A stretch of 32,000 nucleotides of DNA from Acholeplasma laidlawii PG-8A. GTDB taxonomy: Bacteria; Bacillota_I; Bacilli_A; Acholeplasmatales; Acholeplasmataceae. The notes beneath the pieces were generated by a model. The model did no database searches, was not told the origin of the DNA, and saw nothing but the letters and a program-made list of their open reading frames with translations. The stretch covers positions 1,290,001-1,322,000 of the forward strand of contig NC_010163.1 of assembly GCF_000018785.1 (NCBI RefSeq), written 5' to 3'. Positions 15,630 to 21,943 of this stretch are shown piece after piece (within the stretch, counting starts at the first letter, position 1; each line of letters opens with the position of its first letter). The position numbers and the translations under genes are program-made.

Positions 15630-15662
15630 TAAAAAAACCAGAAACTTTACATAGTTTCTGGT
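15630..15662 (-). terminator. Rho-independent terminator ending the helicase/nuclease locus
   Basis: On the minus strand, ACCAGAAACT-atgtaa-AGTTTCTGGT is followed by TTTTTTT. It lies about 155 nt after the stop at 15819. Confidence 0.7.
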
Positions 15663-15818: not shown

Positions 15819-16412
15819 TTACTTAAAATCAAGCAAGTACGCAAAATCATCGATATCATATAATTTAATATTTAGCTTTTCTGCACCAATTTTAGCCTGT
15901 CTAGTAAATCCATGATTATTTGATATGACTACCCAATATTCATTACATTTATAAATTTTACCCCCTGAATGTACTTCTTTAACAGCATCATAACCAACTT
16001 TACCCTTATAGTGCTTAACCTGAATACCGATAACCTTGTTTTCGATCTTCGCGATTACATCAATACCAAAATCACCGGATTTCTTTGTCAATTCTGTCTT
16101 GTATCCGATCAGTTTTAAACTATCTGCAACAAACTTTTCAAATTGATATCCATCCATGGTTTTTATCTTTTTGAAGTTATACTTAATCCTTGTGCGTTCA
16201 ATCTTCTTATTTCTTTCATAAATTTTATATATTTTGTAACCTCTCATACCTAACGCTGCTATCGTTAGTATAATCCCTGGTATTAAATATAAAATTCCAT
16301 AATTCATAGCTGCAAGTATAATTGCTGCTAAACCAAAAGAACCAATAACTATATCCTTATTCTTTATTAAATATTTAATTTCAGCTTTTGAAAATAAATT
16401 GTCATTGCTCAT
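15819..16412 (-). CDS. Membrane-anchored (2 TM) Mrr_cat restriction-endonuclease-fold protein
   Basis: The probable start is the ATG at 16412, with GGAGG 6 nt upstream; the track start at 16454 is less likely. Two hydrophobic helices are present (IVIGSFGLAAIILAAMNYGILYL, IPGIILTIAALGM). The C-terminal domain GYQFEKFVADSLKLIGY...SGDFGIDVIAK...IGIQVKHY has the D...QxK core typical of Mrr-type REase domains. Confidence 0.75.
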   Translation of the reverse strand: MSNDNLFSKAEIKYLIKNKDIVIGSFGLAAIILAAMNYGILYLIPGIILTIAALGMRGYKIYKIYERNKKIERTRIKYNFKKIKTMDGYQFEKFVADSLKLIGYKTELTKKSGDFGIDVIAKIENKVIGIQVKHYKGKVGYDAVKEVHSGGKIYKCNEYWVVISNNHGFTRQAKIGAEKLNIKLYDIDDFAYLLDFK

Positions 16413-16487
16413 TTTTATCCTCCACAAGATTAAATGCATTTGATTATCAAACAAAATAAAACTTATTATTTAAGCATGCTAGAACAA

Positions 16488-19400
16488 TTATTTCAGTATG
16501 TTTATAATACTTTCTCTAACAAACATATATCTTCTTGAGTAGTCATTACCTATCTTTAGTAGTTTTATATTGTTATCCTTGCATATTTGCTCTTTTTTTG
16601 AATCACGCCACTTTGTTTCTTCACTCGAATCATGTTCAGGTCCATTAAGTTCTATTACTAGTACAGGTATTAAATTTCTACCACGTTTAATATAAAGCAC
16701 AAAATCAAACACCGCTTTTGTACCATAATCAAATAATACTGGATGTGTAAATTTATTAAGAACATTAGCCACTTTAACTTGTGTTTTAATTTCATACTGA
16801 TCAGCTGTTGTTAGATAGTGCTTAATTGTTTCGAAGAGTTCAGTTTCGGCTTTCGTATTATATTGTTGATAGTTATGGCTATTCACAGTCATAAGTTCGT
16901 TTTTTGGAGTTAACTCAAACTTCTCTCCATTATTAGCAACATAATCTACTAATTCCACCAAATCATTACTTTGCCCTAAAGATCTACTTCTAATTTCTTC
17001 TGCATCTCCAACAATAATGAGTTCTTTCTTAGGACGTGTGGTTGCTACATTAATTAGCTCAACATTATTCTTAATCCAATCAAAAGTACCTTGTTTAGTA
17101 CTAGGAGTTATTGCTGGACTAAAGTATATCGTATCCTTTTCATCACCTTGAAAAGTATGAATAGTTCCCACTTCTACATGTTTCAAATCATATTCATTTA
17201 ATATGTTTTTTATAAGCTCAGATTGATTAACAAATGGTGTAATTACACCAACATTAAAATTACCCCTTTTTTTAATATACTCTGCAATTTGGATTGCTTC
17301 CATTTCAGAAGTATTTTTTTGAGAATTTGTTTTATTAGTACTATTTCCAGCAACATCTGCTAAAAATAATGCCTTTGTATCGTTGATTGCTGTTTCTATT
17401 TTTAATTCATTTTTATAATACTTTTGATTACTAAAATTTATAATTGATTTGTGACTTCTATAATGATAGTTAAGTAGTACAAAGGGTGAAATATAATCAA
17501 CTAATTGCATGAGCCCTAGTATGGAATTGTTTAAGTAATTATATACATCTGGTATCTTATACTTAATCATTAGTTTTTTATTTAATGCATGAGAAAGTGT
17601 AATCACTGGTCTTAATTGATTTAAATCACCCACAAGCAATAATTTTTTTGCTCTAGAAATAGGAAATAGAGCATAGCCGATTGAACATTGTCCAGCCTCA
17701 TCTATAATCGACAAGTCAAATGAAGGCTCAGGATTTCCTAACCTTGCAGCAGATATATTTGTAGTCATTATAATTGGAAATATTTTGATTAAATCTTTTA
17801 AATTGTCTTGGTTGGTAATATATCTATTAAAGTCGGTTACTCTCTTTTGCTCGTTTTCATCTTTTATAATACTGATTAAATCATTGTATTTAGGTTCTTT
17901 AAATAGTTTAGAAAAACTATTTAAAGATGTATAATACAGCCACATTAAAAAGTCTCTATCAACTTTTTGGATGTGTTTTTGGATACTATCTACCTCAATA
18001 TCCGGTAAACTATCATAATCTTTCTTATATTTTTCATACTCTGCAGTTATTGTTGATACTCTTAAGTTACCCTTAAAAGCTTCTATCACAGAATCTAATG
18101 AATCCATCTGTTCTTTAAGTTGTAATTTGTATTCGTAATCTTTTATTAAATTATTTATAATTGAAAAATTAGATTGACTCAAATTCTTTTTAGAATTAAG
18201 CTGACTCTCGTTAGGTCTGTCAAACTGTTCCTTATAACCATCATATATCGCCTTAATACGCTCTATGGCTTCTAAGACTCTATCTCTGTTGCCTAACCTT
18301 AAAACAGGTAGAGGTATTGTTTTAGTACCATATTTGAGATTAATCAGTTTAGTATAGATATCATCTATGGGTTTATTATTATTTGATGATACTAATACAG
18401 TTTGTTCGTTAAATAAGGTAGATATTAATAAGTTAATAATACTATGTGTTTTTCCTGTACCAGGAGGGCCTTGTACATATGTTATTGGGTGTTTTAATGC
18501 ATTAGAGATAACTCTTAATTGACTTATATTTACCTTATTATCTAATGTCACTATTTGGTAATCATCTTTTTTTCCTAATCTGTGTTTACTCATATTGCCA
18601 AAAAAGGCTTGTAGCGGTGTATTACCTTCCTTTTTTGCCATAAGTATTGAAATATATTTGAATTGTTCTTGAACATTAATACTAAGTTGCCTAATTTGAT
18701 CCATTATATATGGAGTATCATCAAGTTTCTCACCTTTTCTTATGTTGTCCTGTAAAATGTTCTTTGCTTCATTAATATTTGTTGTATATAGTTCTGTGAA
18801 CACTTCAACTTCTATATCTAAGTAATTTCTTAGGTTATGAATGTTTATTTCTTTTTCATCCATAATAAATGAATAGTTAAAATGTACTTCATCTTCCATA
18901 ACCAGAGATTTTGAATAAGGATTGAAATTTAATTTCTTGTAGGCAATAACATATTTACCCCTAGGTGTAATAATGGACAAATCATTAATAATAAGATCAA
19001 TAATTGTGAGATTATTATTTTCCATTTGAGATGAAATTTTGCTTAACTGATCAGAAATTATGCCAATTTGTTGGTAGTTAAGTTTAACTGTTCCATTAGT
19101 TTTTAATATATTTTGATCAATACCATAAACTAGTACACTCTCTCTTTGGTATGGGGGTTGATCATATATTAAGCAGTCTTTATAGTATAGAAACATCTTT
19201 TCATCATATAGATCAAATTCCAACCATTTTAGCCTATCTAATTGGCCTTCTATTTTGTCAATCAAATCTTCCGGTACATCATAAGTTGTGCCCTCAACAA
19301 TATACGCAGCTTGAATTCGATCAAAAAGGATAGTTCTCTTATCTACCCCATTATTATCATTTTCCAATTTAGTTTGATTAAATGCATCAATATAAAGATA

Positions 19401-19532
19401 TTTGTTATCAACATCAATATCCCGAATGCAACACCAAAAGAACGTCTTTTTATCATCAGCGTTCGTGTAGTTAATTGCAACCCATTTGGACTCTTTAATT
19501 GATCTTGATAATGTTTTCCCTATATGTTCCAT
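16488..19532 (-). CDS. Large SF1 (Upf1/DNA2-like) helicase with an unassigned N-terminal ~340 aa and a C-terminal DUF2726/Vsr-like nuclease-fold domain
   Basis: Walker A GPPGTGKTH, Walker B IIDEAGQ, LLLVGDLNQLRPV, YRSH, GTIHTFQGDEKDTIYF, NVATTRPKKELIIVGD. The C-terminal AVFDFVLY...LVIELNGPEH...RDSKKEQICKDNNIKLLKI is of the DUF2726 or Vsr/DUF559 type. The likely start is the ATG at 19532, with GGGGA upstream; the track start is 19550. Confidence 0.88.
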   Translation of the reverse strand: MEHIGKTLSRSIKESKWVAINYTNADDKKTFFWCCIRDIDVDNKYLYIDAFNQTKLENDNNGVDKRTILFDRIQAAYIVEGTTYDVPEDLIDKIEGQLDRLKWLEFDLYDEKMFLYYKDCLIYDQPPYQRESVLVYGIDQNILKTNGTVKLNYQQIGIISDQLSKISSQMENNNLTIIDLIINDLSIITPRGKYVIAYKKLNFNPYSKSLVMEDEVHFNYSFIMDEKEINIHNLRNYLDIEVEVFTELYTTNINEAKNILQDNIRKGEKLDDTPYIMDQIRQLSINVQEQFKYISILMAKKEGNTPLQAFFGNMSKHRLGKKDDYQIVTLDNKVNISQLRVISNALKHPITYVQGPPGTGKTHSIINLLISTLFNEQTVLVSSNNNKPIDDIYTKLINLKYGTKTIPLPVLRLGNRDRVLEAIERIKAIYDGYKEQFDRPNESQLNSKKNLSQSNFSIINNLIKDYEYKLQLKEQMDSLDSVIEAFKGNLRVSTITAEYEKYKKDYDSLPDIEVDSIQKHIQKVDRDFLMWLYYTSLNSFSKLFKEPKYNDLISIIKDENEQKRVTDFNRYITNQDNLKDLIKIFPIIMTTNISAARLGNPEPSFDLSIIDEAGQCSIGYALFPISRAKKLLLVGDLNQLRPVITLSHALNKKLMIKYKIPDVYNYLNNSILGLMQLVDYISPFVLLNYHYRSHKSIINFSNQKYYKNELKIETAINDTKALFLADVAGNSTNKTNSQKNTSEMEAIQIAEYIKKRGNFNVGVITPFVNQSELIKNILNEYDLKHVEVGTIHTFQGDEKDTIYFSPAITPSTKQGTFDWIKNNVELINVATTRPKKELIIVGDAEEIRSRSLGQSNDLVELVDYVANNGEKFELTPKNELMTVNSHNYQQYNTKAETELFETIKHYLTTADQYEIKTQVKVANVLNKFTHPVLFDYGTKAVFDFVLYIKRGRNLIPVLVIELNGPEHDSSEETKWRDSKKEQICKDNNIKLLKIGNDYSRRYMFVRESIINILK

Positions 19533-19592
19533 ATGTATCCCCATCAACATATCTTTATAGAAATAGTTTATTTAATTTACTCTACTAGAGGT

Positions 19593-19621
19593 ATTATACC
19601 TTTTTTTATCAAAATTTGAAA
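19593..19621 (-). promoter_or_regulatory. Possible internal promoter ahead of the large helicase gene
   Basis: TTTCAA (19621-19616), 17-nt spacer, TATAAT (19598-19593) on the minus strand. The genome is AT-rich, so false positives are common. Confidence 0.35.
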
Positions 19622-19651
19622 ACCTAGCTTAGTTTATAATCAGGGTTCCTC

Positions 19652-20038
19652 TCATTTTGAATTATCTTCTTTACTGTAAATATCAAATGCTTCAACAATC
19701 TTTTCCTTAAATCTTTTTCTTCCAATTAATAATACATGCAATTTATTTGCTGAAATGGTGGCTGATTTTTGAAATTTGGCATTTGTAATAACAACTGCTG
19801 TATTACACTTGTAAATCCCTTTAGCAGTATAAATTTCTTAAACTGCCTTTAAGTTTACTTTTTGCTTTAAATATAATTTAGCTTGGATATAGATTTTATC
19901 TTTCCTTTTTTCTGCAAAGACATCTACCCCATAATCGTGACTTCCTTTTGTTATTTTGACCCTAAAACCTGATCTTTTATATGTTTCTGCAATGATTTTT
20001 TTAAAAACATGTGGTTTGAGTTGATCTATTAATGTCAA
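19652..20038 (-). pseudogene. Small stand-alone Mrr_cat restriction-endonuclease-fold gene interrupted by an in-frame TAA
   Basis: TTG start with a GAGGA RBS. 66 codons are followed by TAA (19840-19838). The same frame then continues for 61 more codons (EIYTAKGIYKCNTAVVITNAKFQKSATISANKLHVLLIG...) to the TGA at 19654-19652. The two halves together align colinearly with the Mrr_cat domain of the 15819-16412 paralogue, and the stop aligns with a Lys there. Confidence 0.7.
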
Positions 20039-20058: not shown

Positions 20059-21888
20059 TTAAAATTTTGACTTTAATAACCTGCTAAGTTTGCTATCCAT
20101 ACAATAAATATATATACCCTTCATTCCTCTTTTCATTAGAACATTATATGTATTTCTTATGATCAAATCAATTTGATCTAAATCTTCAATTAAGGGTGAG
20201 CGTCTACCATGTCGTCTAAAATGACCAGCATTCATAGGATGCTTAGTATAATCAGTTTGAACTTGACCTTTTAAAGGGTTATATATTAAATCATCACCTA
20301 TAATTAATCCTATATAATCAAACTCTAATCCTTGAACTGTATCAATATGACCCACTCGATATTTTTGACTTTCATCTGCGCTAAATGTAGTGTCTTTATT
20401 CCATTGTAACGATAATCCATTTATTTTTATATCAAATAATGTTGAATCATCCTTTGAAACCCAATCAAAGACATCTCCTGCCAACATTCTACTATGAGGA
20501 GTTTCTTCAATCTTTTTCATAATTGCTTCATGCCAATCTTGAATATTATCAAAAACTTTGACTTCATATTCTAAGTCCTTGTTTACTATAACTTCCTCAT
20601 TATATAAAATACTTTCAACTGCATTAATATATTCATCATTGCCTGAACATCTAAACTGAGAACTAAGCCTTAAATTTTCATCATCATAAACGTGTGCACC
20701 AAGTTTTTTTGCAGTATGAGTAATACGCTCTATAGTAGCATAATCTCTTATATCAACTTGTTGTTTTTCATCAATAAAAAATATTGAAACTTTTGTGGAA
20801 TCAATAATTTCTTTAATTAAATCTTCTCCTAAAAGTATATTTCCAGATTTTGATCTTTTTGGTAACCTATGTGCTTCATCAACAACTAAACATTCATATT
20901 GATCCTTTGGTCGATCTCTTGATATTTTAATTGTTGAAAGAAAAAGCGTTTTTAAATGTGTATTTTCTCTGCCAGATAACTTTTTACTATAAACATTTCT
21001 AACAGCTGAGTTTTTAGTTACATAAAAAGCTAGTTTTTTGTTTTGAATAAATTCATTTAGTATTTTAACTGCAATAACACTTTTACCTGTTCCAGCACCA
21101 CCTCTAACAATAAAAACTTGTTTTTGGTTATTGCCTTCATTATCCCTAATCGCTTTAATGACATTTTGGTAGCAAATCTCTTGTTTATCCAATAGTGTAA
21201 ATACTTTATTATTGGATAGTTCGCTGGATAAACTATCCATAAGCATTTGTGCTGGAATTATTTTTGAATTTTCAATTTGATATAGTAATTGGTTATGATA
21301 TGCTTTAGAAACATGCATTTTTATAAAATTTGCAAGTCTTTGATTATCTTTTGCCGCAAATACTGGTGATTTTTCCAGAAATTCATTATAAAAATCATCT
21401 TTGATATCACTATCTTCATATAGATTATGCAAATAAGAACATGAAGAGACTTGTATATTTTCCTCAGTGATGTTTTGGTTATATGCTTCTAAATTTAGTT
21501 TGTATGTATATGCTTGGTATGAAGGGTGGAGTGCATCTTGACCATATCTTGTATCATCTGCATTGACTAGTCTACTTTTATTTGTTTTAGATACAGCACT
21601 CCACCGTTTCATTTCAACTATAATCAATGATTTTTCCAAACGATCATTTAACCCTGCGATTAAAAAGTCAATTCGATTATTAGTGATCGGAATTTTTAAT
21701 TCCATGCCAATTTCAATATCACCATCTAACCCTGCTAGTTCAAGAATATTTTTCATGTATACTGCAGCATCTTTCCATGCACTTTGTTCTGACTTACCAG
21801 CGTTAAGTTTACTGGAGATTTTTGTCATGATTTGATTATTCAAAACATCTTGATTAAATTGCTTAATCGACTCATTATATGCTAACAT
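20059..21888 (-). CDS. DUF2075-type P-loop NTPase/SF1-like helicase with N-terminal PD-(D/E)xK-like module
   Basis: The N-terminal NRIDFLIAG...LIIVEMKRW gives a D-x17-ExK arrangement. Walker A VRGGAGTGKSV, Walker B LVVDEAHRL, FRCSG, and HIDTVQGLEFDYIGLIIGDDL match the DUF2075 architecture as I recall it. The likely start is the ATG at 21888; the track start at 21903 is a TTG. Confidence 0.82.
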   Translation of the reverse strand: MLAYNESIKQFNQDVLNNQIMTKISSKLNAGKSEQSAWKDAAVYMKNILELAGLDGDIEIGMELKIPITNNRIDFLIAGLNDRLEKSLIIVEMKRWSAVSKTNKSRLVNADDTRYGQDALHPSYQAYTYKLNLEAYNQNITEENIQVSSCSYLHNLYEDSDIKDDFYNEFLEKSPVFAAKDNQRLANFIKMHVSKAYHNQLLYQIENSKIIPAQMLMDSLSSELSNNKVFTLLDKQEICYQNVIKAIRDNEGNNQKQVFIVRGGAGTGKSVIAVKILNEFIQNKKLAFYVTKNSAVRNVYSKKLSGRENTHLKTLFLSTIKISRDRPKDQYECLVVDEAHRLPKRSKSGNILLGEDLIKEIIDSTKVSIFFIDEKQQVDIRDYATIERITHTAKKLGAHVYDDENLRLSSQFRCSGNDEYINAVESILYNEEVIVNKDLEYEVKVFDNIQDWHEAIMKKIEETPHSRMLAGDVFDWVSKDDSTLFDIKINGLSLQWNKDTTFSADESQKYRVGHIDTVQGLEFDYIGLIIGDDLIYNPLKGQVQTDYTKHPMNAGHFRRHGRRSPLIEDLDQIDLIIRNTYNVLMKRGMKGIYIYCMDSKLSRLLKSKF

Positions 21889-21943
21889 CCCTTGTCCCCA
21901 CAATCTTGTTTATAACATATGCGATTTTAAATTCGTTAATGAT

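Follow-up and report, generated by a model that had tools for sequence, protein, structure and literature searches.

A helicase-nuclease of Acholeplasma laidlawii with a predicted, strongly diverged WYL-type barrel at its N terminus

WYL domains are known mainly as the single-stranded DNA (ssDNA)-sensing switch of transcription factors that govern defense and DNA-damage genes, among them the helix-turn-helix (HTH)-WYL-WCX regulators PafBC, DriD, BrxR, and CapW. In CapW and DriD, ssDNA is bound on top of the WYL barrel, and CapW contacts it through S144, R164, R168, and R184 (PMC11662680). Fusions of WYL domains to superfamily 1 (SF1) helicases were listed in 2014 (PMC4012209), and in a bacterial Pif1, that of Thermotoga elfii, a C-terminal WYL domain binds ssDNA as an accessory module through which ATP hydrolysis is coupled to unwinding (bioRxiv 10.1101/163188). 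Here we describe a protein in which a WYL-type domain appears to stand at the N terminus of an enzyme, a large helicase-nuclease encoded on the reverse strand of a 32,000-nucleotide stretch of the Acholeplasma laidlawii PG-8A genome (contig NC_010163.1, positions 1,290,001 to 1,322,000). We call this whole stretch the window, and coordinates are positions in it unless another locus is named.

Our favored reading, to which we give a probability of roughly 0.6, is that the protein is a single-polypeptide defense-type helicase-nuclease composed of a diverged WYL barrel, a family-specific module, an Upf1-like 5′-3′ SF1B helicase, and a Vsr-like nuclease, and that the barrel would hold single-stranded nucleic acid. 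Domain borders below are residues of the 1,020-amino-acid open reading frame (ORF), while single residues of the barrel (K44, N24, and so on) follow the numbering of the structural model, to which 6 is added to obtain ORF numbering. The C-terminal two-thirds is readily recognized by Pfam, with AAA_11 at 340-650, AAA_12 at 687-850, and DUF2726 at 899-1015, the last with a score of 42.1 bits against a cutoff of 24.7. The helicase motifs are intact (Walker A GPPGTGKT at 361, Walker B DEA at 617, and motif III GDLNQL at 641), and a helical insertion of about 170 amino acids lies between Walker A and Walker B. In a comparison with PDB sequences, the closest solved relatives of this part were Sen1, Upf1/Nam7, DNA2, and IGHMBP2. 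Judged by its sequence, then, the motor is an Upf1-like SF1B helicase. The nuclease domain of relatives also matches MTES_1575 and DUF559, and the C-terminal domain is therefore assigned as a Vsr-like PD-(D/E)xK nuclease. The residues conserved in it, the Asp of F-D-F, the Glu of I-E-L, and an E-H pair, are all present here. Within the motif I-E-L-D/N-G-x-E-H, the D/N position varies (55 D and 37 N among 113 family members), with Asn in this protein and its nearest relatives; because it varies while the flanking Glu and Glu-His stay conserved, this position is probably dispensable.

Parts of this layout have been seen before. Like the Pif1 of T. elfii, the protein would join a WYL barrel to an SF1B 5′-3′ helicase, but here the barrel is N-terminal, an orphan module of 230 amino acids precedes the motor, the motor is of the Upf1 rather than the Pif1 clade, and the chain also carries a nuclease. 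The helicase CnuH of CoCoNuT type III-B (PMC11090510) shares the Upf1-like motor, the large helical insertion after Walker A, and the C-terminal Vsr-like PD-(D/E)xK nuclease. CnuH also has an N-terminal nucleic-acid-binding domain, in that case a Sul7s-like winged HTH and an OB fold (PMC11090510), in place of the barrel and orphan module found here. CnuH works with McrB and McrC homologues, whereas in the present family such genes adjoin in 1 of 20 loci inspected and in none of the other 19, the window included; identity with CoCoNuT type III-B was thus rejected. In the single locus concerned, from a distant genome (L077:9236-12803, minus strand), McrB-like (AAA_5) and McrC genes stand immediately upstream of the family member, an order reminiscent of CoCoNuT type III-B operons. 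The helicase core alone (residues 307-914) matches the Mokosh proteins MkoA (E 2.8e-54) and MkoC (E 1.1e-52) in PADLOC. The match leaves out the N-terminal region, and the nuclease is DUF2726/Vsr-like where Mokosh has PLD. Since the protein has no PLD domain and no PLD gene adjoins it in the window, we rejected this identity as well. Searches of the literature for WYL with Mokosh, WYL with Upf1-like helicases, and DUF2726 with helicases yielded no description of the family. What is new in it is the cryptic N-terminal WYL barrel, the orphan 230-amino-acid module, and the independence from McrBC; helicase-Vsr and WYL-SF1 fusions were already known.

The N-terminal region is where the unusual features lie. 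A preliminary description, made from the DNA letters and translation, had noted about 340 unassigned residues, of which the first 90 or so looked WYL-like and the next 250 or so matched nothing. The sequence on which this was based is present in the translation (KWVAINYTNADDKKTFFW..., YLYIDAFNQ, and KRTILFDRIQAAYIVEG, at ORF residues 22-92), and Pfam returned no match in residues 1-347, even at E ≤ 1, so the region is indeed unassigned. Structure predictions were made for two N-terminal parts of the protein. The AlphaFold2 model, built from a 30-sequence alignment (pLDDT [predicted local distance difference test] score of 82.7; predicted template modeling score [pTM] of 0.79), has a helix followed by five strands, the N-terminal helix and five bent strands of the Sm-like SH3 β-barrel that characterizes the WYL superfamily. 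In Foldseek searches of the PDB, the top matches were BrxR, DriD, PafBC, and CapW (E about 1e-3, probability 1.00, approximately 91 columns), and in a VIA search with the barrel, the top nine matches were all WYL proteins, which stood 2 to 3 Z units above every other SH3/Sm fold. The suspected WYL likeness is thus supported by structure, with residues 7-95 falling among WYL domains.

Sequence profiles point the same way. We compared, by hhalign, a 108-member profile of the N-terminal region with a profile built from 35 HTH-WYL-WCX regulators encoded in same-phylum genomes. A single match resulted, between family residues 6-84 and the WYL domain at regulator positions 130-201 (P 3.3e-4, probability 38%), and in its register, L-Y-I is paired with the W-Y-L strand and I-L-F-D-R-I with the F-R-L-D-R-I strand. 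The score of 35.3 compares with 12.5 ± 2.0 (maximum, 18.2) in 60 column-shuffled controls, about 11 standard deviations above them, and with 16.1 in a reversed control. We take the WYL-like pattern in the sequence to be above chance, the profile signal being modest but specific. On the predicted structure, residues 7-95 are a strongly diverged WYL-superfamily domain, whatever the ligand.

Several observations weigh against counting the barrel as an ordinary WYL domain. The Pfam WYL model (PF13280), the check that had been suggested for this region, did not detect it: the query gave no match at E ≤ 10, below the gathering threshold, and PF13280 had no match in the window's own genome either. 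In the same scan, just 2 of 29 family fragments were matched, at an E value of 0.077 (YolD was matched in 1 of 29 short fragments, at 0.2). No PDB sequence matched the family profile by hmmsearch, nor did phmmer with the N-terminal fragment find any, and the hhalign probability is only 38%. Makarova et al. gave four conserved basic residues as the hallmark of WYL domains (PMC4012209). Here, the only positions at least 70% basic are K13, K16, and K44, from a conserved set comprising K13, K16, W17, Y22, N24, T30, W33, D38, K44, N52, I73, A76, and T82. Of the positions through which CapW contacts ssDNA, only the Ser equivalent (Asn24) and a nearby Lys44 are conserved, and the flanking arginines are not; positions flanking the L-x-V (WYL) strand and within the last strand, I-x-F-D-x-I, are variable rather than basic. 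With these arginines not conserved, the ligand could differ, or binding could have been lost. Other features also set the family apart from the HTH-WYL-WCX regulators. The barrel starts at residue 7 of the ORF, leaving no room for an HTH, and the module that follows it matches no BrxR, CapW, DriD, or PafBC chain, although a diverged WCX could escape a structure search; the hhalign comparison with the regulators likewise aligned the WYL part only.

The module between barrel and motor gave no Pfam match in the scan mentioned above and no structural match, either by Foldseek against PDB and BFVD or by VIA against 48,161 PDB representatives, so that the earlier impression of a long stretch resembling nothing holds for some 230 to 250 amino acids. 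Because it is confidently modeled yet has no structural relative, we consider this family-specific module a candidate new fold. One can envision, as a tentative possibility, that residues 96-325 form a new fold that transduces between a ligand-binding WYL barrel and the Upf1-like motor, making the protein a self-contained sense-and-cleave immune enzyme in which phage single-stranded nucleic acid on the barrel licenses the helicase-nuclease.

How might the parts work together? Most likely, by analogy with described WYL proteins, single-stranded nucleic acid bound by the barrel serves to load the helicase-nuclease or to gate it. We imagine that it would grip a few nucleotides, as the WYL domains of DriD, CapW, PafBC, and bacterial Pif1 do, and that this binding would either tether the translocase to its substrate and load it there or free it from an inactive state; the present data are compatible with both a loading aid and an allosteric gate. 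The link from the barrel to RecA domain 1 would be the middle module, which would position the barrel relative to that domain, the motor would move 5′-3′, and the Vsr-like nuclease would cut the nucleic acid fed to it.

Other roles for the N-terminal region can be considered. The barrel might be a generic Sm/SH3-like fold used for oligomerization or protein docking, WYL-like in structure only and binding neither ligand nor nucleic acid. The loss of the canonical basic contact residues and the failure of the Pfam WYL model would suit such a role, and Sm-like barrels often form rings, while WYL regulators are dimers (PMC4012209, PMC11662680). The lead of WYL proteins over all other SH3/Sm folds and the profile alignment in register with the WYL strands argue otherwise, as do the conserved surface-type residues K16, W17, Y22, N24, T30, W33, K44, and N52, which suggest a binding site and not packing alone, and we think a generic barrel unlikely. 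Alternatively, the ligand sensed by the domain could be a small nucleotide (for example, a cyclic dinucleotide or a modified nucleotide made during infection) that turns the helicase-nuclease on by allostery. The first prediction for WYL domains was that they sense nucleotide derivatives (PMC4012209), perception of cyclic di-GMP is reported for one WYL regulator (PMC11880434), and a changed ligand would suit the missing ssDNA-contact arginines. However, no signal-generating enzyme is conserved beside the gene across 20 loci, and all structurally characterized WYL proteins matched here bind ssDNA (PMC11662680), which makes a small-nucleotide sensor quite improbable.

It also seems highly improbable that the N-terminal 340 residues represent, in diverged form, a known accessory region, be it the CH domain of Upf1, the Upf1/DNA2 barrel with its stalk, or the DUF4011 region of Hhe-type helicases. 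The DUF4011 helicases do have the same layout of helicase and Vsr-like nuclease, and a language-model search placed residues 98-335 nearest to DUF4011/AAA_11 clusters, at 0.85 to 0.86, below the 0.9 level at which such a match is more than a lead. As a relative of the middle module, DUF4011 was rejected: hhalign of the family against 30 DUF4011 regions gave a P of 0.17, and DUF4011 is not among the 25 commonest Pfam families in 45 members. Upf1, DNA2, Sen1, and IGHMBP2 chains were absent among the structural matches of both models. Hence none of the accessory domains that had been named as a possible identity for the region (the Upf1 CH domain, the DNA2 barrel) fits, nor does DUF4011. The same genome encodes, outside the window, a separate helicase-type protein of 1,240 amino acids with a DUF4011 match (G000:C1:551766-552125; E 1.4e-11), whose N terminus is unrelated to that of the helicase-nuclease studied here.

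Returning to the helicase-nuclease with a WYL-type barrel, we asked how widely it occurs. A search with the 347-amino-acid N-terminal fragment against 1.84 billion cluster representatives matched 274 proteins at E ≤ 1e-3, of which 63 reached E ≤ 1e-30. Nearly all of the 274 are about 1,000 amino acids long and share one architecture, with the match at the N terminus; the region is thus conserved over 274 clusters. A word-indexed search returned 30 relatives, every one with AAA_11, AAA_12, and DUF2726. The distribution is patchy: of the 399 genomes of the class that were sampled, 49 matched a profile of the N-terminal region, and the matches fell in 38 of 218 genera, almost always in open frames of 1,000 to 1,060 amino acids. 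The longer members P0087, P0050, P0071, and P0166 carry no additional recognizable domain, and short family matches with N-terminal extensions have no HTH or other domain. Short genomic matches might have been stand-alone WYL proteins; this was rejected, as the three inspected, from three genomes, are decayed gene remnants (Table 1).

The genomic context was sampled at 20 family members of different genomes, with 15 kb taken around each. No neighbor was conserved across these loci; apart from the helicase itself, a single small cluster reached three or more loci (it was in 3), and it never adjoined the gene. The preliminary description had envisioned a self-contained sense-and-cleave protein, and the first half of that proposal fits this lack of a conserved neighbor; the sensor role of the barrel is something that we infer. 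Genes adjoining family members elsewhere encode McrB/McrC, a PLD-helicase-DUF3427 protein, an nSTAND NTPase, DUF6119, and a UvrD-type helicase with a serine recombinase, and housekeeping neighbors such as a penicillin-binding protein also occur. Given the patchy distribution, the variable, defense-rich context, and the decayed copies, the family fits a mobile single-gene defense enzyme, the defense role again being one that we infer.

Within the window, two P-type ATPase genes flank the block to which the gene belongs. The block also contains a DUF2075/SLFN-type helicase gene, a small Mrr_cat gene broken by a stop codon, a 211-amino-acid Mrr_cat gene, and a DUF6933 gene. The DUF2075/SLFN-type helicase (20059-21903, minus strand) has homologues of about 36% identity at L085:10324-12192 and L074:3647-5521 (both minus strand). 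It occurs within a few kilobases of a family member in 2 of 19 other genomes, a loose co-occurrence rather than an operon. The small Mrr_cat gene upstream of the helicase-nuclease (19652-20038, minus strand) is interrupted in this genome by a stop codon in frame; its counterpart at the corresponding position in a same-genus genome (L066:9208-9609, minus strand) is an intact ORF of 133 amino acids, 79% identical. The 211-amino-acid Mrr_cat gene (15819-16454, minus strand) starts 34 nucleotides past the helicase stop, and the sole strong terminator-like hairpin (15637-15662, minus strand) sits after it. This spacing and the position of the hairpin suggest that the two genes are probably cotranscribed in this genome, although genomes outside the genus do not conserve this pairing. 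Mrr_cat neighbors were seen only in the same-genus genome, and Mrr_cat was rejected as a partner.

The longest ORF spans 16488-19550 on the minus strand and translates to 1,020 amino acids. Homologues are 1,014 amino acids long and align from its second Met (Met7), and a Shine-Dalgarno-like GGGGA run precedes the ATG at 19532; for these reasons, the true start is probably this ATG and not that at 19550. The promoter-like site upstream (Table 1) is weak evidence, since shuffled sequence yields at least as many such sites.

Table 1. Features of the helicase-nuclease gene and decayed copies at other loci
Feature	Residues	Coordinates	Strand	Basis or remark
Whole gene, helicase-nuclease of 1,014 amino acids		16488..19532	-	ORF list and translation; homologues of 1,014 amino acids aligning from Met7
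Predicted divergent WYL-type Sm/SH3 barrel	7-95	19266..19532	-	N-terminal helix and five strands
Conserved α/β module of ~230 amino acids, no fold assigned	96-325	18576..19265	-	Long β-hairpin; near-invariant P-L-x-A-F-F-G
Low-confidence linker into helicase core	326-346	18513..18575	-	pLDDT <50, model residues 320-331 and 334-341
Upf1-like SF1B helicase core	347-875	16926..18512	-	Pfam AAA_11 2.3e-32, AAA_12 3.2e-25
DUF2726/Vsr-like PD-(D/E)xK nuclease, C-terminal	899-1015	16506..16856	-	Pfam DUF2726 8.7e-11
Promoter-like site TTTTCA-18-TATAAT		19593..19622	-	Upstream of helicase-nuclease gene; consensus scan
Remnant with first ~96 and last ~78 residues, large internal deletion		L116:4351-4898	-	Decayed copy
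Remnant with first ~60 residues only		L117:4025-4204	+	Decayed copy
Remnant with first ~60 residues only		L118:527-697	-	Decayed copy

These findings place a WYL-type barrel, missed by standard sequence models, in direct connection with an Upf1-like motor and a nuclease, with no partner gene. In the Bacilli and Mollicutes lineages, entire families with WYL domains would accordingly escape Pfam-based counts. Should the barrel act as a gate for the enzyme, one protein would combine sensing with killing and could become a simple system for studying how ligand binding by a WYL domain is turned into enzyme activity.

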